From UHGV virus genome UHGV-0121576: a DNA stretch of 41,663 nucleotides. One strand, given 5' to 3'. The stretch is from a virus. Shown here piece after piece: positions 3,587 to 39,700 of the stretch. The position numbers were made by a program, and so were the translations under genes. Every line of letters begins with the position of its first letter. Within the stretch, counting starts at the first letter, position 1. The notes below the pieces were generated by a model. The model saw only the letters and a list, made by a program, of their open reading frames with translations, did not search any database and was not told the origin of the DNA.

Positions 3587-5799
3587 TATATTCTTTCTCC
3601 CATTTGTGCATCTGTCAGTTCCTTATGCCAGATACGTAAATTGCGCACGTGTCCAAATAAATGCCTGTTACCTGATATTGATTGACCGCCTATATTTATT
3701 GGCCCTTCTGTATAACGTTGTCTTGTGTGTTGTGATACACCAACAGCGCCAAAGTTACCGTTTATAACAGCACGCAATTCTTTCTGCTCTGTAAACTTAA
3801 ACCCAGCAATAAACCTGCGGGTTGTCCTGTTACAGTAGGCTTTATACTCGGTCTTTGTTCCTTTTCCGTTAGTTATAATTGAGCGCGCGCCTCCAGAGGT
3901 AAAACCAAAATACATATAACTTTCATCAGCAACATCCGTTGTTGCGCCAGTTATTGACACGTTAAGAAGCCTTGCTGAACCTTCACTGTTTGGCATTTTG
4001 TCCCAGTTGATATTAACTTCCATAAGAACGCTTAACGGAGGTGTTGACCAGTTCAGTCTTATTGGCATTATTACCACGTCACTAGCCCGTGTAACTGCCA
4101 CATCTGATGTAACGATAAATGATGATGCACACGATCCTTTTTCAAATTGCGGCGTAGTAAACATTATCTGATCGCCTTTTTTGATCGCCCTTTTATCTGC
4201 TCCCATTTCAAAGCGCCCATACATGCTTTTTGCTTCTGGTGATTTATATGTAAATTCGACGCGTAACCATCCGTTAGCTTCTCTGTATATGACATGATTT
4301 ACAGCATCCCCACCAGAAAAACCTAAAACATCACCAGTTTCGCAATCTATGTAGGAACCAGCTACCAGCGTGTTGCTTGTGCCGTCATCGTTAACGAAAG
4401 ATATTCTGGGTCTTAACGTTATAATACCTTCTCCATTTATCTTCTTAACCCTACAGGACAAAGTAACAGATTCATTTGCAGCAACATCAATAACCCTACT
4501 GTATCCAGTAGATATTATCGTCGCCCTTTCAGTGGTTGATGTTTCCTTTACATCGAACAAACCATATTTAAAACCATATTCATCAACCGATGTGGTTATT
4601 TCTATATTCTTGTCGTCATAATTCCATAATGAAGGATTGTTACTATTAGTAAATGTATTTGTCCTCTGACCTTCAATTAATAAACCTTCCTTTTCAAAGC
4701 GCGGCTCGTTAATTTCTGCAAAAGCAAATGAACCTGATTTGTTTATATACGTTGCAGAAGTGGAGCGAGTGAAAGATACAACCTTCTCTGATGGAAAAGT
4801 AATAACATCATCACCGATAGTGACTTTTTTATAACCTGGGGCGAAACCAGTAATCATTTCCAGTGAATCGTTAAACGGTATCCACACATCAGGCAACGGC
4901 TGCAAAACTTGTTTATACGGCTCCGCTGCCTGGCTTGCATACTCTCTGGCTGCGTCTTCACTTGCTTTAGCTGCTGTCTGGCTTGCCGCCGATGCTTGCG
5001 CCGAGTTAGCCGCCGCAGTCTCGCTCGCCTTTGCGTTGGTTTCACTGGTTTTTGCAGCTTTTTGACTGTTTGCTGATGCAGTGGCAGAAGCAGCCGCCGC
5101 ACTTGCAGAACCAGCTGCGGCACTCTCGCTTTCAGCTGCTGCATCCTGACTGCTTTTCGCCGCAGTTTCGCTGGCTTTGGCATTCGTTTCGCTGGTCTTC
5201 GCTGCCGTCTGGCTGGACTTTGCGTTGGTTTCGCTCGTCTTTGCGGCTGTCTCGCTGTTTTTCGCGTTGGTTTCTGATTTTTTGGCTGCTGTCGCGGAGT
5301 TTGCCGATGCAGTCTGCGAGGTCGCTGCCGCCTGTGCGCTGTTAGCTGCATTCGTTTCTGAGGTTTTCGCCGCGTTCTTCGATGAAGCCGCTGCAGTTTC
5401 GGATTTCTTTGCCGCCGCTGCGCTCTGAGAGGCGGCTTCGGCGTTGCGTGCCGCTTCTTCCACCATTGCCTCAAAACGGCGCAATGCCTCCGGCATGACA
5501 TCATCTTCCGTCATGGCACCGAGAAAATCATTCAGCGTACCTGGTCTGGAACCTTCATAGACGGTAATGGTCCCGGCATGTGAAGGCGGAAAACCTTCAA
5601 CCAGCAGGGTGACGCTGTACTGGCCATACTCAACATCCATGCTGTAACGTCCGGCTTCATCCGGATTTTCAGAAGCCACCGTGTTCACCAGTACCGTGGT
5701 GCTGTTACGCTTTGCCTTCAGTTGAATAGTGCAGTTCTGTATTGGTTTTCCCGCACCATCTTTCAGCACACCTGAGATTTTTACTGCTGCCATATCCAC
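3586..5799 (-). CDS. stf: Side tail fibre protein
   Basis: N-terminus VKISGVLKDGAGKPIQNCTIQLKAKRNSTT...GRYSMDVEYGQYSV matches lambda Stf; long Ala/Ser/Thr collagen-like repeat region; C-terminal 400 aa unlike lambda. Confidence 0.85.
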   Translation of the reverse strand: MDMAAVKISGVLKDGAGKPIQNCTIQLKAKRNSTTVLVNTVASENPDEAGRYSMDVEYGQYSVTLLVEGFPPSHAGTITVYEGSRPGTLNDFLGAMTEDDVMPEALRRFEAMVEEAARNAEAASQSAAAAKKSETAAASSKNAAKTSETNAANSAQAAATSQTASANSATAAKKSETNAKNSETAAKTSETNAKSSQTAAKTSETNAKASETAAKSSQDAAAESESAAAGSASAAAASATASANSQKAAKTSETNAKASETAAANSAQASAASQTAAKASEDAAREYASQAAEPYKQVLQPLPDVWIPFNDSLEMITGFAPGYKKVTIGDDVITFPSEKVVSFTRSTSATYINKSGSFAFAEINEPRFEKEGLLIEGQRTNTFTNSNNPSLWNYDDKNIEITTSVDEYGFKYGLFDVKETSTTERATIISTGYSRVIDVAANESVTLSCRVKKINGEGIITLRPRISFVNDDGTSNTLVAGSYIDCETGDVLGFSGGDAVNHVIYREANGWLRVEFTYKSPEAKSMYGRFEMGADKRAIKKGDQIMFTTPQFEKGSCASSFIVTSDVAVTRASDVVIMPIRLNWSTPPLSVLMEVNINWDKMPNSEGSARLLNVSITGATTDVADESYMYFGFTSGGARSIITNGKGTKTEYKAYCNRTTRRFIAGFKFTEQKELRAVINGNFGAVGVSQHTRQRYTEGPINIGGQSISGNRHLFGHVRNLRIWHKELTDAQMGERI
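4930..5470 (-). repeat. Intragenic tandem repeats in stf encoding a collagen-like AAKTSETNAK-type motif
   Basis: Visibly periodic DNA (gcggtctcgctggctttggcattcgtttcgctggtcttcgc...) and repeated peptide units; produces long spurious ORFs in other frames. Confidence 0.6.
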
Positions 5800-12081: not shown

Positions 12082-12410
12082 CAGTTCACCACCTGTTCAA
12101 ACTCTGCGCTGAACTCAACACGCAGCATACTGACCCGCGACGACCATTTTGCGCAGGTCACCTTTATCTGCCGCCACTCATAAGGCGGCGTCCACAGAAA
12201 GGCTTTCCAGCCCCCGTGCTCTTCCAGAAACGACTCCAGCGCCGTGGCCTCCTCACGGGGGACAGAAAGCGTCACGCTGTACGTTTTCAGGTTGGCATTC
12301 AGCCCGGCAGGCGCTCGCTGGGAATAGCCATCACCAAAGCGCACCTTTCTTACAGAAGGGTCCGAAGCCACATCCATACCGGGTTTCACTTTCCAGCGGA
12401 AGGTTTTCAT
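12081..12410 (-). CDS. M: Tail tip protein M
   Basis: 109 aa as lambda M; overlapping stop/start with L and H. Confidence 0.85.
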   Translation of the reverse strand: MKTFRWKVKPGMDVASDPSVRKVRFGDGYSQRAPAGLNANLKTYSVTLSVPREEATALESFLEEHGGWKAFLWTPPYEWRQIKVTCAKWSSRVSMLRVEFSAEFEQVVN

Positions 12411-14968
12411 CGTCCACCTCCGGAGAACAGACCACCATCACGCATCTGCCCGGTCACAACATCCATTGCCGCCTTACGGGCTACGTCATAAACAGCCTTC
12501 AGCACCTGTGGCCCTATCTGACCGTTCGTGCCGTCGTTGTTAATCACCACATGGTTATTCTGCTCAAACGTCCCGGACGCCTGCGACCGGCTGTCCGCCA
12601 TGCTGCCCGGTGTACCGACATAACCGCCGGTGGCATAGCCGCGCATCAGCCGGTAAAGATTCCCCACGCCAATCCGGCTGGTTGCCTCCTTCGTGAAGAC
12701 AAATTCACCACGATGAACAATCCCCGCAGGCTCATATTTGCCGCCGGTTCCCGTAAATCCTCCGGTCGCAAAATGGAATTTCGCCGCAGCTGCCTGAATG
12801 GCTGTACCGCCTGACGCCGATGCGCCACCACCAACAGCTCCGCCAATGGCGCTGCCAATACTCCCGACAATCCCCACCATTGCCTGCTTAAGCAGAATTT
12901 CTGTCATCATGGACAGCACGGAACGGGTGAAGCTGCGCCAGTTCTGCTCACTGCCGGTCAGCATCGCCGCCATATTCTGTGCAATACCATCAAAGGTCTG
13001 CGTGGCTGCACTTTTAACCTGCGACATACTGTCCGTGGCGCTCTCTTCCCACTCACTCCAGCCGGACTTCAGGCCTGCCATCCAGCTCCCGCGAAGCTGG
13101 TCTTCAGCCGCCCAGGTCTTTTTCTGCTCTGACATGACGTTATTCAGCGCCAGCGGATTATCGCCATACTGTTCCTTCAGGCGCTGTTCCGTGGCTTCCC
13201 GTTCTGCCTGCCGGTCAGTCAGCCCCCGGCTTTTCGCATCAATGGCGGCCCGTTTTGCCCGTTGCTGCTGTGCGAATTTATCCGCCTGCTGCGCCAGCGC
13301 GTTCAGGCGCTCCTGATACGTAACCTTGTCGCCAAGTGCAGCCAGCTGGCGTTTGTACTCCAGCGTCTCATCTTTATGCGCCAGCAGGGATTTCTCCTGT
13401 GCAGACAGCTGGCGACGTTGCGCCGCCTCCTCCAGTACCGCGAACTGACTCTCCGCCTTCCACAAATCCCGGCGCTGCTGGCTGATTTTCTCATTCGCTC
13501 CGGCATGCTTCTCCAGCGTCCGGAGTTCTGCCTGAAGCGTCAGCAGGGCAGCATGAGCACTGTCTTCCTGACGATCGCCCGCAGACACCTTCACGCCGGA
13601 CTGTTTCGGCTTTTTCAGCGTCGCTTCATAGTCCTTTTTCGCCGCCGCCATCAGCGTGTTGTAATCCGCCTGCAGGATTTTCCCGTCTTTCAGTGCCTTG
13701 TTCAGTTCTTCCTGACGGGCGGTATATTTCTCCAGCGGCGTCTGCAGCCGTTCGTAAGCCTTCTGCGCCTCTTCGGTATATTTCAGCCGTGACGCTTCGG
13801 TATCGCTCTGCTGCTGCGCATTTTTGTCCTGTTGAGTCTGCTGCTCAGCCTTCTTTCGGGCGGCTTCAAGCGCAAGACGGGCCTTTTCACGATCATCCCA
13901 GTAACGCGCCCGCGCTTCATCGTTAACAAAATAATCATCCTTGCGCAGATTCCAGATGTCGTCTGCTTTCTTAAACGCAGCCTCTGCCTTAATCAGCATC
14001 TCCTGCGCGGTATCAGGACGACCAATATCCAGCACCGCATCCCACATGGATTTGAATGCCCGCGCTGTCCTGTCTGCCCAGGTCTCCAGCGTGCCCATGT
14101 TCTCTTTCAGGCGGCGGGTCTGGTCATCAAACCCTTTCGTTGCGGCTTCGTTCGCCGCCTGCAATGCCCCGGCTTCATCGCCGGAACGCTGCAACTGAGC
14201 AACATACGCAATCTGCTCCGCCGTCACGTTATGGAACTGGCGCGCCATCGCCGTCAGCCCCGACGTCGGGTCAGTGGTCAGCTTCCCGAAGGCTTCAGCG
14301 ACCTTGTCCACCTCCACGCCGGATGCAGAGGAGAAACGCGCCACACTCTGGCTGATGGACGCAATCTGAGCCTCACCGCTTACCCCCGCCTTAACCAGTG
14401 CACTGAGTGACTCGCTGGTCTGGTTAAACGTCAGCCCTGCCGCCTGCCCGGCTCTGGACAGGACCAGCATACGATCTGCCGTCAGACCTGACTGATGACC
14501 GGAAAGGACCAGCGTTTTGTTGAAATCGGACAGGGTTGAGTTACCCTGATACCAGGCATACGCCAGCGCACCGGTCGCCACCGCCAGCGAGGTGGCCCCG
14601 ACCATCGGCAGGGTGATCGCACCGGCAAGCCCCCGGAACATGGGGATCATCCCGCCGAAGGAGTCCTTAACCTGACCACCCTGTTGCAGCAGGATCAGCC
14701 ACGGGCTTTGCCCGCCTGCAAGCTGCGTGGCCACGTCAGTGAACTGTGCAGGAAGCATACGCATGGCGGCTTTATACTGCCCGACGGAAATCCCCGCTTT
14801 CTGTGCAGCCAGCGCCTGCCGGTTCATTGACTGTTCAACGACTGCCGCTGTTTTTTTCGCATCACTTTCCGTACCGGAAAAATGACGCCTGACTCTGGCC
14901 ATCTGCTCGTCAAATCTGGCTGCATCCAGACTTAAATCAACGACCAGATCGCCTACCGGTTCAGCCAT
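12407..14968 (-). CDS. H: Tail tape-measure protein H
   Basis: 853 aa (lambda H length), long alpha-helical repeat-rich sequence, Gly-rich C-terminus. Confidence 0.9.
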   Translation of the reverse strand: MAEPVGDLVVDLSLDAARFDEQMARVRRHFSGTESDAKKTAAVVEQSMNRQALAAQKAGISVGQYKAAMRMLPAQFTDVATQLAGGQSPWLILLQQGGQVKDSFGGMIPMFRGLAGAITLPMVGATSLAVATGALAYAWYQGNSTLSDFNKTLVLSGHQSGLTADRMLVLSRAGQAAGLTFNQTSESLSALVKAGVSGEAQIASISQSVARFSSASGVEVDKVAEAFGKLTTDPTSGLTAMARQFHNVTAEQIAYVAQLQRSGDEAGALQAANEAATKGFDDQTRRLKENMGTLETWADRTARAFKSMWDAVLDIGRPDTAQEMLIKAEAAFKKADDIWNLRKDDYFVNDEARARYWDDREKARLALEAARKKAEQQTQQDKNAQQQSDTEASRLKYTEEAQKAYERLQTPLEKYTARQEELNKALKDGKILQADYNTLMAAAKKDYEATLKKPKQSGVKVSAGDRQEDSAHAALLTLQAELRTLEKHAGANEKISQQRRDLWKAESQFAVLEEAAQRRQLSAQEKSLLAHKDETLEYKRQLAALGDKVTYQERLNALAQQADKFAQQQRAKRAAIDAKSRGLTDRQAEREATEQRLKEQYGDNPLALNNVMSEQKKTWAAEDQLRGSWMAGLKSGWSEWEESATDSMSQVKSAATQTFDGIAQNMAAMLTGSEQNWRSFTRSVLSMMTEILLKQAMVGIVGSIGSAIGGAVGGGASASGGTAIQAAAAKFHFATGGFTGTGGKYEPAGIVHRGEFVFTKEATSRIGVGNLYRLMRGYATGGYVGTPGSMADSRSQASGTFEQNNHVVINNDGTNGQIGPQVLKAVYDVARKAAMDVVTGQMRDGGLFSGGGR

Positions 14969-26489: not shown

Positions 26490-26507
26490 GTGCGACCACG
26501 GTCGCAC
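26490..26507. promoter_or_regulatory. sopC-like centromere palindrome GTGCGACCACGGTCGCAC (site 1)
   Basis: 8-bp inverted arms around a central AC; core GACCACGGTC is identical to the F sopC repeat core as recalled. Confidence 0.6.
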
Positions 26508-26709: not shown

Positions 26710-26727
26710 GTGCGACCACGGTCGCAC
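26710..26727. promoter_or_regulatory. sopC-like centromere palindrome GTGCGACCACGGTCGCAC (site 2)
   Basis: Identical to site 1, 220 bp away, same orientation. Confidence 0.6.
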
Positions 26728-29739: not shown

Positions 29740-29757
29740 GTGCGACCGTGGTCGCAC
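29740..29757. promoter_or_regulatory. sopC-like centromere palindrome GTGCGACCGTGGTCGCAC (site 3, opposite orientation)
   Basis: Same arms as sites 1 and 2 with central GT; flanking CT and AG extend the symmetry to 22 bp. Confidence 0.6.
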
Positions 29758-29762
29758 AGTTT

Positions 29763-29990
29763 TTAGAAAGTTGCCTGCTTATATTCATCGGTCAAAGAAT
29801 ATCGACCAGACCCGCTACGCTTTGCAACCCCAAAACAGATCATCTGTTCGATGATAAATTCAACGGCAGCTTGACTCAAAAAACAGGCTTCGCTTAACTC
29901 TTTCAGGGAAATGCGTGGGTATCCACGCATAACACATTCCACACTCAGGGCCGCTTCAGTCATATTTCCACGAATTTCATTAATATTCAT
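29763..29990 (-). CDS. Hypothetical 75-aa protein (possible small DNA-binding protein)
   Basis: ORF only; last gene before the late-promoter leader. Confidence 0.4.
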   Translation of the reverse strand: MNINEIRGNMTEAALSVECVMRGYPRISLKELSEACFLSQAAVEFIIEQMICFGVAKRSGSGRYSLTDEYKQATF

Positions 29991-30003
29991 AACGCCTCTC
30001 TAA

Positions 30004-30243
30004 TCAATCTTGAAACTGGAAATCAACATCAGCCATAAAGCGGTTCAACTCAGCCAGTTTTGGCCCCATAGTCCCAACTAAGCGACCAGCCAGTCGGTCT
30101 GCCAGGTTGGTACTGTTGAAACCATATTCCTTTTCGAAACGTTCAACCTTCTGCCACAACTCATACAGTTCGTTAGCTATCTCCGCAACGTCGTCGCGCA
30201 TTTTTTCGTTACCTTGATAATTCATAATATCCTCCAAATTCAT
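30004..30243 (-). CDS. Hypothetical 79-aa acidic protein
   Basis: ORF only; divergent from the toxin-antitoxin promoter region. Confidence 0.4.
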   Translation of the reverse strand: MNLEDIMNYQGNEKMRDDVAEIANELYELWQKVERFEKEYGFNSTNLADRLAGRLVGTMGPKLAELNRFMADVDFQFQD

Positions 30244-30390
30244 ATAGTTAGTGGGTTATTGCCCCTCAATGACACGAACTGTAACTCTGCCAAACGAACA
30301 CATCCAGTGTTATTTTTCACTTTTTAGTGAAATTTTTAATTTGCGCTTTTTTCTTGTTTTGGTGTATTTTATGGCTATGGAGGCTATAAT

Positions 30391-30702
30391 ATGTTTAACG
30401 TGATAACCCACCCTGCAGCACTGGATGAACTGCTTGAACTACCAGATGATTTGCGAGGTCGCATGACCAGATTAATTGAGCGACTGGAGAAGGAAGGCAA
30501 CAAACTGAAGATGCCCCATAGCCGTGTAATAGGTGGAGGGCTTTTTGAACTACGAGTAGGGGATAAAAACATCGCAAGAACGCTGTACGCCTACGCGACT
30601 GGTAACGAAATTTATCTATTGCATGCATTTGTAAAAAAGACACAGAAAACACCGGTGAAGGCTATCGAAATCGCCAGAACTCGCCTGAAGGAGATGAACT
30701 GA
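30391..30702 (+). CDS. Type II toxin, RelE/ParE superfamily, Gp49-like (HigB-like)
   Basis: LFELRV...ARTLYAYATGNEIYLLHAFVKKTQKTP motif typical of the phage Gp49-like toxin family (named after N15 gp49) as recalled; followed by an overlapping HTH gene. Confidence 0.7.
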   Translation: MFNVITHPAALDELLELPDDLRGRMTRLIERLEKEGNKLKMPHSRVIGGGLFELRVGDKNIARTLYAYATGNEIYLLHAFVKKTQKTPVKAIEIARTRLKEMN

Positions 30703-30989
30703 TGAAAGCGAAAGGCATCCCGTTTAACGAAGTAAAAGAAAAACTTCTCAACACTCCAGAAGCCATCAAAGGATATGAAGAGGCCGATAAAGAGCTGGAG
30801 ATGGTCGAAATGTTATACGAAATGAGGGAAAGAGCAGGTTTAACGAAGTCAGCTCTGGCTGAACGAATGGGATTGCGCCCGTCAGCTATCAGCCGCCTGG
30901 AAAGCAATCCTTTAGGGGCAAGCATGAAAACTTTATCAAAATATGCCCAAGCATGCGGTGCAACGATTAATATTAATGCCGTCTATTGA
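30702..30989 (+). CDS. HTH XRE-family antitoxin (HigA-like)
   Basis: HTH LTKSALAERMGLRPSAISRLE; start overlaps the toxin stop (ATGA). Confidence 0.7.
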   Translation: MKAKGIPFNEVKEKLLNTPEAIKGYEEADKELEMVEMLYEMRERAGLTKSALAERMGLRPSAISRLESNPLGASMKTLSKYAQACGATININAVY

Positions 30990-31006
30990 TTAGACCCTTT
31001 TCGCTA

Positions 31007-31026
31007 CCCCGTCCAGAAGGGCGGGG
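31007..31026 (+). terminator. Hairpin after the toxin-antitoxin pair (weak T-tract)
   Basis: CCCCGTCC-AGAA-GGGCGGGG stem-loop between convergent genes. Confidence 0.3.
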
Positions 31027-31032
31027 TGTGTA

Positions 31033-31251
31033 TCAATGATGCAAACACTCAACAGCAATAACTTGTTGGCAATTCTGAGCAATCTCCCGCGACATACTAA
31101 CAAGTCGTGAAATCTCGCCAAGATGCAAGCTGGCTTCTGGAGAAGCCAGAGCAACGCTAACCAGATCTAAAACGGCGTCGATGTCTTTTAGGTTTGATCC
31201 GAGTTCTTCAAGAGTTGATACAGGTGCTTCAGTCATTGAATCTAATACCAT
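31033..31251 (-). CDS. Hypothetical 72-aa acidic protein
   Basis: ORF only; preceded by a 240-bp non-coding region. Confidence 0.35.
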   Translation of the reverse strand: MVLDSMTEAPVSTLEELGSNLKDIDAVLDLVSVALASPEASLHLGEISRLVSMSREIAQNCQQVIAVECLHH

Positions 31252-31493
31252 TTAATTAAAAAAGGTTATTTGATACTGTATAAAATTACAGGGTAAAACT
31301 CAAATTTTATAGCCAACTTTCAATGGATTAACTGGTTAAATATCTTTGTAGTCCGATACTTATGTTCCCTTCCTACGCCTCGCCCAACCACTTTCAAAAG
31401 CCCATCACCACCATCAGAAAAGCTCTTTTCGCTCCGTTTTCGTATCATTTCAAAAAGCAATGCCTTTTTGTCCATTTATCCCTCCGTGACCAG

Positions 31494-31820
31494 TCACACT
31501 TTGAGCGCAAGTTTCAGCCTCGTGGTTGTAAGGTGGCATGAGCCTTCACCATCAAAAATGCATTCTGAAACAGGCATTTTTTGACCACATCGCGGACAAG
31601 TAGTAGATAGCTGTTTCTGCAACTCCTTATAGTTTTTCCTGATCAGCAGTCCGATGACTTCGTTCTCTGAATATGGAACTCGCCCTGGTCTACGCAATAC
31701 ACAAATTTCCCCCAACATACGTAACTCGTCAGGTTCCAGAATCCAGTCACGTCTTGATGTTCCTTCCTTCTTCAACCGTTCCCTGCGTCTTCTTTGCCGT
31801 TCTGCCGGTGTCAGCGCCAT
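31494..31820 (-). CDS. Hypothetical protein with N-terminal arginine-rich motif and C-terminal CxxC...CxxxxC cluster
   Basis: MALTPAERQRRRRERLKKEG then CPRCGQKMPVSECIFDGEGSCH; last gene of a five-gene overlapping cluster. Confidence 0.45.
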   Translation of the reverse strand: MALTPAERQRRRRERLKKEGTSRRDWILEPDELRMLGEICVLRRPGRVPYSENEVIGLLIRKNYKELQKQLSTTCPRCGQKMPVSECIFDGEGSCHLTTTRLKLALKV

Positions 31821-34707: not shown

Positions 34708-35008
34708 TTTCTTGTGCGACCACGGTCGCACCCTCTCTGATTTCCAAGTAACGCTTAATCCAAAGATTTTCTATATGCTTATTACCTGGCTGATTTGATA
34801 AATACCAATCGGCAATTACAGACTGCTTATTACTATCTGGTCGTGTCCTGTAACCACAAGTTGGACACCAGATAACATATTCATTTCTTACCCCCGAATA
34901 CCTTAATTCTGGCTTCGACGGTTTCCTGAACATAACTTGTTTACAAAGGCAGAATGGCACTTCCTGCCCGATGGCGTTTGATGATTTCACTGCGCTTCTC
35001 CGCCGCAT
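34688..35008 (-). CDS. Small Cys-rich zinc-ribbon protein (possibly Lar-like)
   Basis: CLC and WCPTCG pairs; overlaps the end of the upstream ORF, so the start is uncertain. Confidence 0.35.
   Translation of the reverse strand: MRRRSAVKSSNAIGQEVPFCLCKQVMFRKPSKPELRYSGVRNEYVIWCPTCGYRTRPDSNKQSVIADWYLSNQPGNKHIENLWIKRYLEIREGATVVAQENENNAI
34714..34731. promoter_or_regulatory. sopC-like centromere palindrome GTGCGACCACGGTCGCAC (site 4)
   Basis: Identical to sites 1 and 2; lies between the Q-like/zinc-ribbon genes and the downstream operon. Confidence 0.6.
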
Positions 35009-36795: not shown

Positions 36796-39700
36796 ATGAC
36801 ATTAAACGATTTCTATGCGGATCGCTTTGGCAGCGATCCGTTCTCGCTAATTGAAGCAGCACGGGATGAACTAACCGAGCTGGCACAGATGGCTGGTATC
36901 AACTGGTCTGCCTGTTCCGACAACATCCAACTCAACCCTCGCGGGGGTGTTGAGCGTTACTCTTCATACAATAAAACATCCCCAGAAGCTCTCGAAAAGA
37001 GCCTCAAAGGACGCGTAGAAATTTACTCCCGGCTGGAACACAGCAAAGGGATTGATTACCCGTTCATTAACTTCGTCCATAAAGGCAGCGATGCTGGCTC
37101 ATGGAGCGGTTTCTCCTTCCTGTTTTCTGAATATCGCCGTGAGCAACAACGGAATAATGCGACCGTGGTCGCACAACCGGAAGAAGAACGGGCAAGAATA
37201 GAACGTCAGGCCGAAGCACGTCGTCGCCGTGAAGAACAAAAACGAATTAATGACCTGAAAAACAACCAAATGGACCATGAACGTTTGCTGGGATGGCTGG
37301 CATTCCACAGTGCTTGGGAACATGCTCCTGCAGAAGACGGCTCATGGCCATATGCGATTAAAAAAGGTATTCGTGACGTTTTTAATTCGTGTGATGTGCG
37401 TCGCGTGACCAGTCACGACAGCGCAAAATGGAGCAGGGGGCCAACCACGTATATGGCTATCCCTCTGGCTCACCTGGACGGTCGTTACGATGGTCGTATT
37501 GTTGGTTGGCAGCGAATCGACAAACAAGGTGGAAAATACCAGACCAGCGCCGTAACCAGCGGCGATTTCGTCGGTGCCTGCTTTGTTATCGGTGAGCTGA
37601 AAGGGGCGCAAAACATCGCTGTTACAGAAGGTTTTGCTACTGGTGCATCCATCTGGCTTGCCACGAAAAAAGATAAACGCTTTGACGCTGTGGTTGTCGC
37701 TGTATCCGCTAACAACATGGTTCATGTTGTGGAACAACTGGTAAACATGTACCCGGCGGCAAAAATCACCTGCGCACTGGATAATGACCGGAAATCAGCT
37801 ACAGAAGGAAAAGGGAATACCGGCCTGCGGACTGGCTATGAAATCTTATCGAAATTCAACGATGTCCGCTGCGTCTATCCAACTTTTGAAGACGATCCGC
37901 AAATGGAGTGCAGTGACTTCAACGACCTGCACAAACTACGTGGACTTCGTGAAACAGCACGTCAACTGTTTGCAACTGCAAACCGCCTGAAAACTGGCAC
38001 TGATTTGCTATCTCTGACGCTCAACCGCCTGAAGACAATTAAGCGGGATAACCGTCGTACTTTTGCCAAAGAGCTGCTGAGAGCAGTGGATATTGGCATG
38101 CTAACCTGTCCGGTTCCTAACAGTCCGTCAGACTTATTTAACATGTTCTGCATCGTCCTGCGTGAAATTGGGCTGGAAAATATCTATCGCGCTACGGTAA
38201 AAGACCACATTGCCCGTCGCCTGAATAAAAAGTGCCGTATTGCCCAGGCTCCGCGCTCATTCAGCGAACGAATAACTGATCCCAATAAACGTCCTCAACA
38301 TATCACCTATAAGCGTTTTGAAACTTCGGTAATGACCGATGACGTCCTGAAGTATGTGCAATCACTACAGGGGATAGTCATCGTTCGTGCTGGTATGGGT
38401 TCCGGCAAATCTACTGGATTGTTACGACCTTTAATGCATAGCTCAGAACGTGGTATCTCTGTTGCTCACCGTGTTTCCCTTATTGGTGGCCTGTGGGAAA
38501 TGATGACAGAAGGAAAAGGTGTAAAAGCCGATATCCTGCACTATCAGGACCCTGGCTATCAGGAAATGGCTCCATACGCCAGTAAACTGACCATCTGCAT
38601 AAACTCGATTGTTAAAAACTGCTGGCAACCATTGATGCGCCAGCACGACTATTTTGGCTTTGACGAGGCCACGCAAGGGCTACGTGCCGTTCTTTCCGGT
38701 CGGGCTATGGAAAACCCGGTGGCTGTATTCAATACGTTAATTGACGCGCTGGCCAGAACGGAACAACACCCAATAATGGTGGATGCTGATGCGAACGATC
38801 TGCTGGTTGACCTGGCTGAACTGGCTATGAAACGCCGTGAAGAACTAGGTTTACCGGCATGGCTGCAGATCCACGTAATTGAATTACCTGTTGATGTTCG
38901 CAACCGCGAAACAGGTGAGCCAATCCGGGTTTTTTATACAGAAAAAGATCGCATTATGACCGAGGTGGTGAAAGCTGTATCGAATGGCGAAAAAATCATG
39001 TTGGCCACCGACAGCTCCACCTTTGCAGAAGATGTGACCGCCACCCTGAGAATGCATTTTCCTGGTAAGAAATTTCTGTGTGTAAACCAGAAAAACAAAC
39101 CAGAGCCAGAAGTTGAAGCATTTACCAATCAACCGAAAAAGATGGTCAAAAAATACGACGGCCTGATTTATAGCCCGTCTATTTCATCCGGTGTGTCGAT
39201 TGAGCAAAAACATTTTGACCGTCATTTCGGCATGTTCTGTGGTGAAGTTGTACCCAGCGACGCAGTGCAAATGCTACGCCGCGACCGTACAGCAAAAGAA
39301 TTTATTATCGGCTTTGATAAAGCTCGCGCAAAACGTGAAACTGACCCGCAAAAAATAGAACGAGCATTCGCCCAGGCATTGCTTGCTACCGCAGGCATGA
39401 ACGGTGAACTGACGGATGTCGTTTTCGATGGCGACCGTATATCAATGGGGGTGGCCAATACCGACTTTACCAGGATGAAAATTAAAGCAGCCGCAATTGA
39501 AGCGTCTGCGCGTAACGACTACGCCAGCAACATGATCTGCATCATGCACAGCGACGGTTATAAGGTATCGCCGCTGGCCACCGATTATGCTGCGAATGAT
39601 ATCGGTAAAGATCTGCGTAAAGAAGCGCGGGATATTGTGTGGGAACAGACACTGGATCTGCATCTCAATACAGAAACTCCACAAGAATCAGAGCGTGAAG

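Follow-up and report, generated by a model that had tools for sequence, protein, structure and literature searches.

What are two plus-strand genes doing in the middle of an operon that runs the other way? The question is raised by positions 30391-30989 of UHGV virus genome UHGV-0121576, a stretch of 41,663 nucleotides (nt) analysed as a whole and called the window here. A preliminary description, made from the letters alone, had read the two genes as a Gp49-type toxin and a helix-turn-helix (HTH) antitoxin set between minus-strand genes; both open reading frames (ORFs) are found at exactly the coordinates it gave, with matches to the Pfam families PF05973 and HTH_3, and all four listed neighbours, the gp51-, gp50-, gp47- and gp46-like genes, are on the minus strand. 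Judged by its sequence, the locus is very probably a type II toxin-antitoxin (TA) addiction module of the Tad-Ata (Gp49-type HigBA) kind, orthologous to gp49/gp48 of phage N15 and carried by a close N15 relative. The pair is already known biology, a real but ordinary N15-type module.

The Gp49 half of the profile check that had been proposed gives a clear match: the Pfam Gp49 profile (PF05973, DUF891; Tad toxins, COG4679) covers the first gene product over all 90 profile positions (E=2.5e-29), with a score of 101.6 bits where the cutoff is 23.9, and PHROG 2523 matches it as well (E=2.6e-43). The second is matched by Pfam HTH_3 over residues 38-88 (E=1.6e-12), its N-terminal part being presumably the portion that neutralises the toxin. 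The toxin is 100% identical to its counterparts in PhiR46_1 and YDC107_1, 92% identical to N15 gp49 (over 103 amino acids, aa) and 91% identical to phiKO2 gp49, and the antitoxin is 86% identical to N15 gp48. When profiles built from eight homologues were compared with the PDB, that of the toxin found HigB (6af3_A, E=5.8e-10) and Mycobacterium tuberculosis HigB1 (7nbu/7awk, about 2e-6), and that of the antitoxin found HigA (6af3_B, E=3.8e-8) and also M. tuberculosis HigA3 (6lty), HigA2 (7EWC) and HipB; the best matches of the two proteins are the two chains of one solved complex, Streptococcus pneumoniae HigBA (6AF3). Among the toxin residues that are invariant down to 41% identity are R55, R63, G71, K82/K83 and K86, along with the GLFE-R and F-KK--KTP motifs. 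In RefSeq, identical sequences already carry the annotation of a type II RelE/ParE-family toxin and an HTH regulator. The toxin-first order, which had been likened to HigBA-type modules, is borne out, the overlapping genes fitting the 'reverse' arrangement of the Tad-Ata/HigBA type (PMC5906591, PMC2701414).

Several observations on the toxin weigh against this assignment. No Pfam RelE/ParE or HigB_toxin model is matched at E<=0.1, and the sole RelE/ParE model that is touched, TIGR02683 of NCBIfam, gives 15.1 bits, which is below its cutoff of 62.85, so that the RelE/ParE half of the proposed profile check yielded no curated model above threshold. Because the curated models of those families are unmatched, the toxin is filed under Gp49/Tad rather than as a canonical RelE, ParE or HigB. 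Its supposed mRNA-cleaving activity is drawn by analogy from Gp49-family relatives with 20-45% identity, and a single-sequence AlphaFold2 model (mean predicted local distance difference test score, pLDDT, 45.3; predicted template modelling score, pTM, 0.33) is too poor to judge the fold, its order of helix-helix-four strands-helix being suggestive only. Action of the toxin on something else than translating mRNA, such as DNA gyrase, the target of ParE toxins, would be in keeping with the place of Gp49 proteins in the wider RelE/ParE group, with the RefSeq name, which says only 'RelE/ParE family toxin', and with the cell elongation reported for related toxins (PMC8265657). We consider such a target quite improbable: sequence comparison leads to no solved relatives other than HigB endoribonucleases (6af3_A, and 7nbu/7awk, entitled 'endoribonuclease HigB1'), the characterised Gp49/Tad-type toxins cleave RNA (PMC5906591, PMC8265657), and no ParE model is matched.

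The toxin stop and the antitoxin start share one base (TGATG), and the Shine-Dalgarno sequence AAGGAG that precedes the antitoxin gene is part of a 13-nt block, CTGAAGGAGATGA, shared without change by the window, N15, phiKO2 and KpLi5. Since this block, embedded in coding sequence, is invariant despite variable synonymous sites nearby, it indicates that translation of the antitoxin would be coupled to that of the toxin. Across four orthologues, clear constraint on the synonymous sites of the toxin gene is confined to codons 1-8 and the last five codons, with only a mild rise over codons 59-74, and this conservation reveals no convincing internal promoter for the antitoxin within the toxin gene. 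Such an internal antitoxin promoter was reportedly found by Dziewit et al., who are said to have described cassettes with two promoters. In Acinetobacter baumannii the internal antitoxin promoter is non-functional (PMC5906591).

Both genes are under strong purifying selection. The ratio of non-synonymous to synonymous substitution rates (dN/dS) is 0.02-0.05 for the toxin and 0.03-0.09 for the antitoxin (where dS is measurable), hence 0.02-0.09 for the pair, with synonymous sites near saturation, and the pair has the lowest ratio of non-synonymous to synonymous differences per site (pN/pS) in its neighbourhood, its products being the most constrained proteins there. These values make it extremely improbable that the pair is an inactive remnant conserved by linkage only, for both frames are intact at saturated synonymous divergence, and the Shine-Dalgarno sequences and the stop/start overlap are conserved as well. 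Not every member of the family is active, it is true, Z3230-Z3231, one of four loci in the tests of Dziewit et al., having reportedly failed to stabilise plasmids. The proportion of synonymous differences in the pair (0.57-0.84) is like that in the flanking gp51-, gp50- and gp46-like genes (0.63-1.03), the GC content is like that of the neighbours, and the pair occupies the same site in the N15/phiKO2-type phages examined. With synonymous divergence equal to that of the flanks and a neighbour-like GC content, the pair is a long-standing resident that has diverged together with the backbone, and a recent insertion or a foreign origin is ruled out. The earlier statement that the pair was inserted into the operon can be kept only if it means that the pair is a cassette open to exchange; as a recent event it does not stand, the pair being ancestral.

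The element that carries the pair is, by similarity, an N15-like linear phage-plasmid. The whole window shares 98% identity with Escherichia phage PhiR46_1 and about 95% with phage YDC107_1 (Ravinvirus), and the PhiR46_1 record (PV340565.1) is linear, with telL, telR, ParA/ParB, a large primase and cI annotated. The N15/phiKO2-type centromere palindrome GTGCGACC-NN-GGTCGCAC, which is annotated in phiKO2 as a putative plasmid partitioning site, occurs in the window in five scattered copies, four of them perfect and one with a single mismatch, against a chance expectation of about 0.24; the copy at 29740-29757 lies just downstream of the gp51-like gene, two genes and about 650 bp from the TA module. 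The PhiR46_1 identity and these partition palindromes show that the term 'plasmid-prophage', used in the preliminary description, was right. In complete Escherichia coli genomes the locus is found in 17 of 5426, with all 17 copies on plasmids and none on a chromosome; among the full-length matches listed, these plasmids are mostly of about 46 kb (range 36-68 kb). The locus is extrachromosomal in the E. coli genomes as in the window, itself a phage-plasmid, and this is the location that an addiction module calls for.

Two roles had been suggested for the pair, retention of the plasmid-prophage and abortive infection, and only the former has held up. Phage defence is one possible function of type II TA modules, and the pair might in principle serve mainly against other phages, by abortive infection or superinfection exclusion, protecting the lysogen rather than retaining the plasmid. 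In favour of such a role, the toxin is partially matched by the C-terminus of NsnC in PADLOC (E=2.6e-7, positions 229-282 of 293, i.e. 54/293), the antitoxin matches the generic HTH models of PADLOC defence loci, and an exclusion gene (Spackle) is annotated elsewhere on the element in the PhiR46_1 record. The PADLOC matches are, however, weak and either partial or of the generic HTH kind, with no defence system matched as a whole; the locus is restricted to plasmids in complete E. coli genomes; and its slot is filled in a relative by another classical addiction pair, hicAB. Retention is the best supported role, and the N15 orthologue is reported as a TA stabilising system encoded by N15, at least in the title of Dziewit et al. 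2007 (J Bacteriol 189:1983) as cited in PMC5906591, PMC2701414 and PMC3606827. A mainly anti-phage function is for these reasons improbable.

The 147-nt intergenic region before the toxin gene contains an inverted repeat, TTTCACT-tttt-AGTGAAA. The preliminary description had noticed it, placing it at about 30330-30350; the repeat is real and lies some 15-20 nt further to the left. Shuffling this AT-rich region yields a perfect repeat with 7-nt arms in 196 of 2000 trials, so that chance alone produces one about 10% of the time. The repeat is nevertheless unique in the window (the next-best site, at 12384 and with two mismatches, is a chance-level match), and it is invariant in N15, phiKO2 and YDC107_1 despite a diverged spacer and near-saturated synonymous sites in the adjacent genes; in KpLi5 there is one change, in the right arm. 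Its distance from the ATG is equal across relatives (-76 to -79), and four distant homologues (41-47% identity) each carry a palindrome of their own, different from this one, upstream of the toxin gene. Because the repeat is invariant in relatives and segregates with the toxin cassette, and because distant homologues carry different palindromes, we infer that it is a candidate operator of the antitoxin. Downstream of it, putative -35 and -10 hexamers, which were read by eye from conserved alignment columns and fall below the thresholds of a consensus promoter and terminator scan of 29900-31400, would constitute the promoter of the TA operon; the aligned -10 in N15, phiKO2 and KpLi5 is TATATT. 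Another promoter-like site on the plus strand (30221-30248), inside the start of the gp50-like gene, was rejected, its -10 not being conserved in N15.

Also bearing on the operator assignment, and to its disadvantage, is the position of the palindrome upstream of the putative -35 instead of over the promoter core, together with the run of T residues that follows it and the label of putative rho-independent terminator that the same element bears in the GenBank record of N15. The palindrome could accordingly be a weak intrinsic terminator or insulator, or the site of another phage regulator, with any autoregulation of the pair located elsewhere; TTTTT follows the repeat, and the plus-strand RNA folds better than shuffled sequences (z = -3.3). 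However, the stem comprises only 7 A/T-rich pairs and the consensus scan called no terminator within 29900-31400, there is no plus-strand gene upstream whose transcript could end there, and the repeat is absent where hicAB replaces gp49 even though the gp50-side flank is kept. The differing palindromes of the distant homologues are, moreover, what would be expected of operators that co-evolve with their HTH proteins. We regard the terminator or foreign-site explanation as somewhat unlikely, although it deserves to be taken seriously, and retain the palindrome as the candidate operator.

Two further observations concern the same intergenic stretch. A small plus-strand ORF that spans it (30251-30403) was rejected as non-coding, the alignments of relatives containing 1-nt indels; ORFs called across this stretch in PhiR46_1 (14107-14241, over the palindrome) and in KpLi5 are labelled 'hypothetical'. 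Between the gp50-like start and the palindrome, a non-coding block (30268-30310; GACACGAACTGTAACTCTG...CACATCCAG) is conserved in N15, phiKO2, KpLi5 and the hicAB-bearing phage, and because it is also kept in the last of these it belongs to the gp50 side rather than to the TA cassette; it contains no recognisable promoter, LexA box or Rfam family, and in an Rfam search of the whole window no family reached its gathering threshold.

Taken together as an addiction module, the locus would work as follows. In the lysogen, both genes would be transcribed from their own promoter in the intergenic region, opposite to the surrounding operon, and the antitoxin would be translated in step with the toxin by virtue of the 1-nt overlap and the AAGGAG in the last toxin codons, both of which can be read in the sequence. 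The antitoxin would bind and neutralise the toxin, and its XRE-type HTH probably represses the operon at TTTCACT-N4-AGTGAAA by analogy with A. baumannii HigBA2, the palindrome just upstream of the -35 being the most likely site of repression. A cell that loses the low-copy linear plasmid could not replace the antitoxin, which is presumably labile to proteases, and the toxin thus released would arrest translation and growth, acting, to judge by homology, as a ribosome-dependent mRNA endonuclease with the RelE/HigB fold. Plasmid-free segregants would be counter-selected in this way, as is established for related Gp49/Tad-type modules.

Table 1. Positions of the TA pair, its predicted signals and the neighbouring features in the window.
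Feature	Position	Strand	Details
Toxin gene	30391-30702	+	103 aa; Gp49/Tad-type member of RelE/HigB-like toxins; N15 gp49 orthologue
Antitoxin gene	30702-30989	+	95 aa; C-terminal XRE/Cro-type HTH; N15 gp48 orthologue
Toxin Shine-Dalgarno, GGAGG	30379-30383	+	7 nt before ATG; invariant in all aligned relatives
Antitoxin Shine-Dalgarno, AAGGAG	30688-30693	+	In last toxin codons; 8 nt before antitoxin ATG
Inverted repeat, TTTCACT-tttt-AGTGAAA	30315-30321 / 30326-30332		Perfect; 59-76 nt upstream of toxin ATG
Putative sigma-70 promoter	30341-30368	+	-35 TTGCGC (30341-30346), 16-nt spacer, -10 TGTATT (30363-30368)
GC-rich hairpin	31005-31014 / 31019-31028	+	10 pairs including two G-U; between convergent stops (30989, 31033)
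gp51-like gene	29763-29990	-	Neighbour of pair
gp50-like gene	30004-30243	-	Neighbour of pair
gp47-like gene	31033-31251	-	72 aa; convergent with antitoxin gene
gp46-like gene	31494-31820	-	Neighbour of pair
Partition-type palindrome, GTGCGACC-NN-GGTCGCAC	26490-26507, 26710-26727, 29740-29757, 34714-34731, 37157-37174		phiKO2-type

The hairpin that had been noted after the pair is also real and lies at 31005-31028. The 61-nt segment that contains it folds with -23 kcal/mol on the plus strand (z = -4.3), compared with z = -0.6 on the minus strand. No U-tract follows the stem and the terminator scan made no call there, and the hairpin is likely to be a stabiliser of the 3' end of the TA transcript or a weak terminator of it. 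In phiKO2 and in Enterobacter phage MStein-2023a, unrelated hairpins flanked by A and T runs are found in the same position, and because unrelated structures occupy the same spot, a conserved need for 3' structure between the convergent genes is suggested. The product of the gp47-like gene on the far side of the hairpin belongs to PHROG 6301, with a weaker match to the anti-repressor phrog_10889 (E=1.4e-6).

The exchange of the pair for another addiction system is illustrated by Enterobacter phage MStein-2023a (CP115603.1), in which positions 1459-2327 on the minus strand are the counterpart of window positions 30312-30989. Instead of the palindrome, the promoter and gp49, this phage carries hicA (60 aa) and hicB (143 aa), identified by Pfam at E=6.8e-10 and 2e-12, respectively. 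Its homology with the window extends on the gp50 side up to ...CACATCCAGT, just upstream of the palindrome, and begins again with the ribosome-binding site and the start of gp48. The gp48 gene that is kept downstream of hicB has its frame broken by an extra G in a G-run. The frameshift could be the decay that the TA assignment predicts for an antitoxin left without its toxin, or it could be a sequencing error in the homopolymer.

The cassette is probably also more widely distributed than the N15-like backbone. Of 72,556 plasmid records, 3723 have a homologue of the toxin; its identity is 80% or more in 329, compared with only 210 plasmid records with gp50-like proteins at 60% identity or more; on the basis of this difference the cassette probably occurs outside N15-like backbones as well. 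Two plasmid records were noted in this connection, CP098976.1 (97.6 kb) and CP088746.1 (16.6 kb). Between the window and YDC107_1 (3893-4491), identity is 100% across the toxin gene and the 160 nt before it that were included, and the antitoxin gene has 20 substitutions, 15 synonymous and 5 non-synonymous, the amino-acid changes all falling in the C-terminal 17 residues; this suggests a recombination breakpoint inside the antitoxin gene. In Klebsiella phage Kpn74 (OQ790078.1, 1201-1473) the toxin is seemingly truncated, the antitoxin is uncalled and many neighbouring genes are fragmented, which is probably a problem of sequence quality in the record and not biology.

A more specific answer to the opening question would be that the gap between gp50 and gp47 is a dedicated slot for exchangeable addiction cassettes in N15-like phage-plasmids, filled by gp49/gp48 in most and by hicAB in one, and that the orientation against the operon is itself functional. 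In the prophage state the pair would be expressed and autoregulated through the palindrome, and when the minus-strand phage operon is switched on, antisense read-through across the pair would stop the supply of antitoxin and release the toxin. Read on the minus strand, the hairpin beyond the antitoxin gene is weak and lacks a U-tract. As a joint proposal, the dedicated slot and the antisense switch strike us as distinctly improbable; if true, the switch would provide a timed shut-off of host translation, or an abortive switch, during induction or superinfection.

With the pair read as an N15-type addiction module, the value of the locus as a discovery is small, as it is the orthologue of a locus that the literature gives as the phage example of its family and is already annotated in RefSeq. 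It does correct the PhiR46_1 record (13521-14241), in which both TA genes are given as 'hypothetical protein', and it allows the candidate operator to be pinpointed. The exchange of gp49/gp48 and hicAB in one slot, documented here, is relevant to the persistence of phage-plasmids, which are increasingly noticed in Enterobacteriaceae.

Among known systems, the canonical HigBA modules of plasmid Rts1 and E. coli K-12 (HigB_toxin, PF05015) share with the pair the toxin-first order, an HTH antitoxin and a toxin of the RelE superfamily, but their Pfam model is not matched by the window toxin at E<=0.1; Gp49-domain toxins in general bear little similarity to canonical HigB proteins (PMC5906591). The closest solved structures, S. 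pneumoniae HigBA (6AF3) and M. tuberculosis HigB1, HigA2 and HigA3 (7NBU/7AWK, 7EWC, 6LTY), are those of remote homologues. The HigB of 6AF3 is longer (141 aa), with about 35 extra residues at the N-terminus that are absent from the window toxin, and the M. tuberculosis system requires a SecB-like chaperone (PMC3581621), whereas the window locus is without one.

The plasmid-borne Tad-Ata and Gp49-type HigBA modules, such as tad-ata of pAMI2, HigBA2 of A. baumannii pAB120 and HigBA of IncC plasmids, have in common with the window locus the Pfam family of the toxin, the toxin-first order and an XRE-HTH antitoxin. For these relatives, plasmid addiction, RNase activity and autorepression by the antitoxin have been established by experiment (PMC5906591, PMC8265657, PMC2701414). 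Modules with a Gp49 domain are toxin-first, A. baumannii HigB2 is a ribonuclease, and HigA2 represses its own promoter with HigB2 as corepressor (PMC5906591); the Tad/HigB toxin of IncC plasmids is a ribosome-dependent RNase and part of an effective addiction module (PMC8265657). The plasmid homologues retrieved, including an Acinetobacter one, are only 41-46% identical to the window toxin, their upstream palindromes differ, and the modules reside on circular conjugative or mobilisable plasmids, the window module being on a linear prophage. HigBAAb has about 20% identity to validated Tad-type modules (PMC5906591).

Among phages, phiKO2 and the Klebsiella N15-like phage-plasmids (e.g. vB_KpnS_KpLi5) resemble the window in synteny, orientation and toxin sequence (88-91% identity), phiKO2 differing in its 4-nt ATGA overlap and in the canonical bidirectional terminator that follows its antitoxin gene. 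N15 gp49 is the named phage example of the RelE-related Tad/DUF891 family (PMC2701414, PMC3606827), and gp49-gp48 has been cited as a 'chaperone-less' HigBA-like module (PMC3581621). The likeness of the window to N15 extends to the lengths of both proteins (103 and 95 aa), the 1-nt stop/start overlap, the gap between gp50 and gp47 with gp51 and gp46 beyond, the orientation against the operon, and an upstream palindrome that is identical and equally far from the ATG. In the 2007 study by Dziewit et al., gp49-gp48 is said to have stabilised a heterologous replicon, and overexpression of gp49 was reportedly bacteriostatic, with cell elongation. Downstream of the antitoxin gene, the window has a GC-rich hairpin of its own and a shorter gap to gp47 than N15; the N15 and window pairs themselves differ by sequence drift only, with about 65% of synonymous sites changed and a -10 of TATATT in N15 compared with TGTATT in the window.

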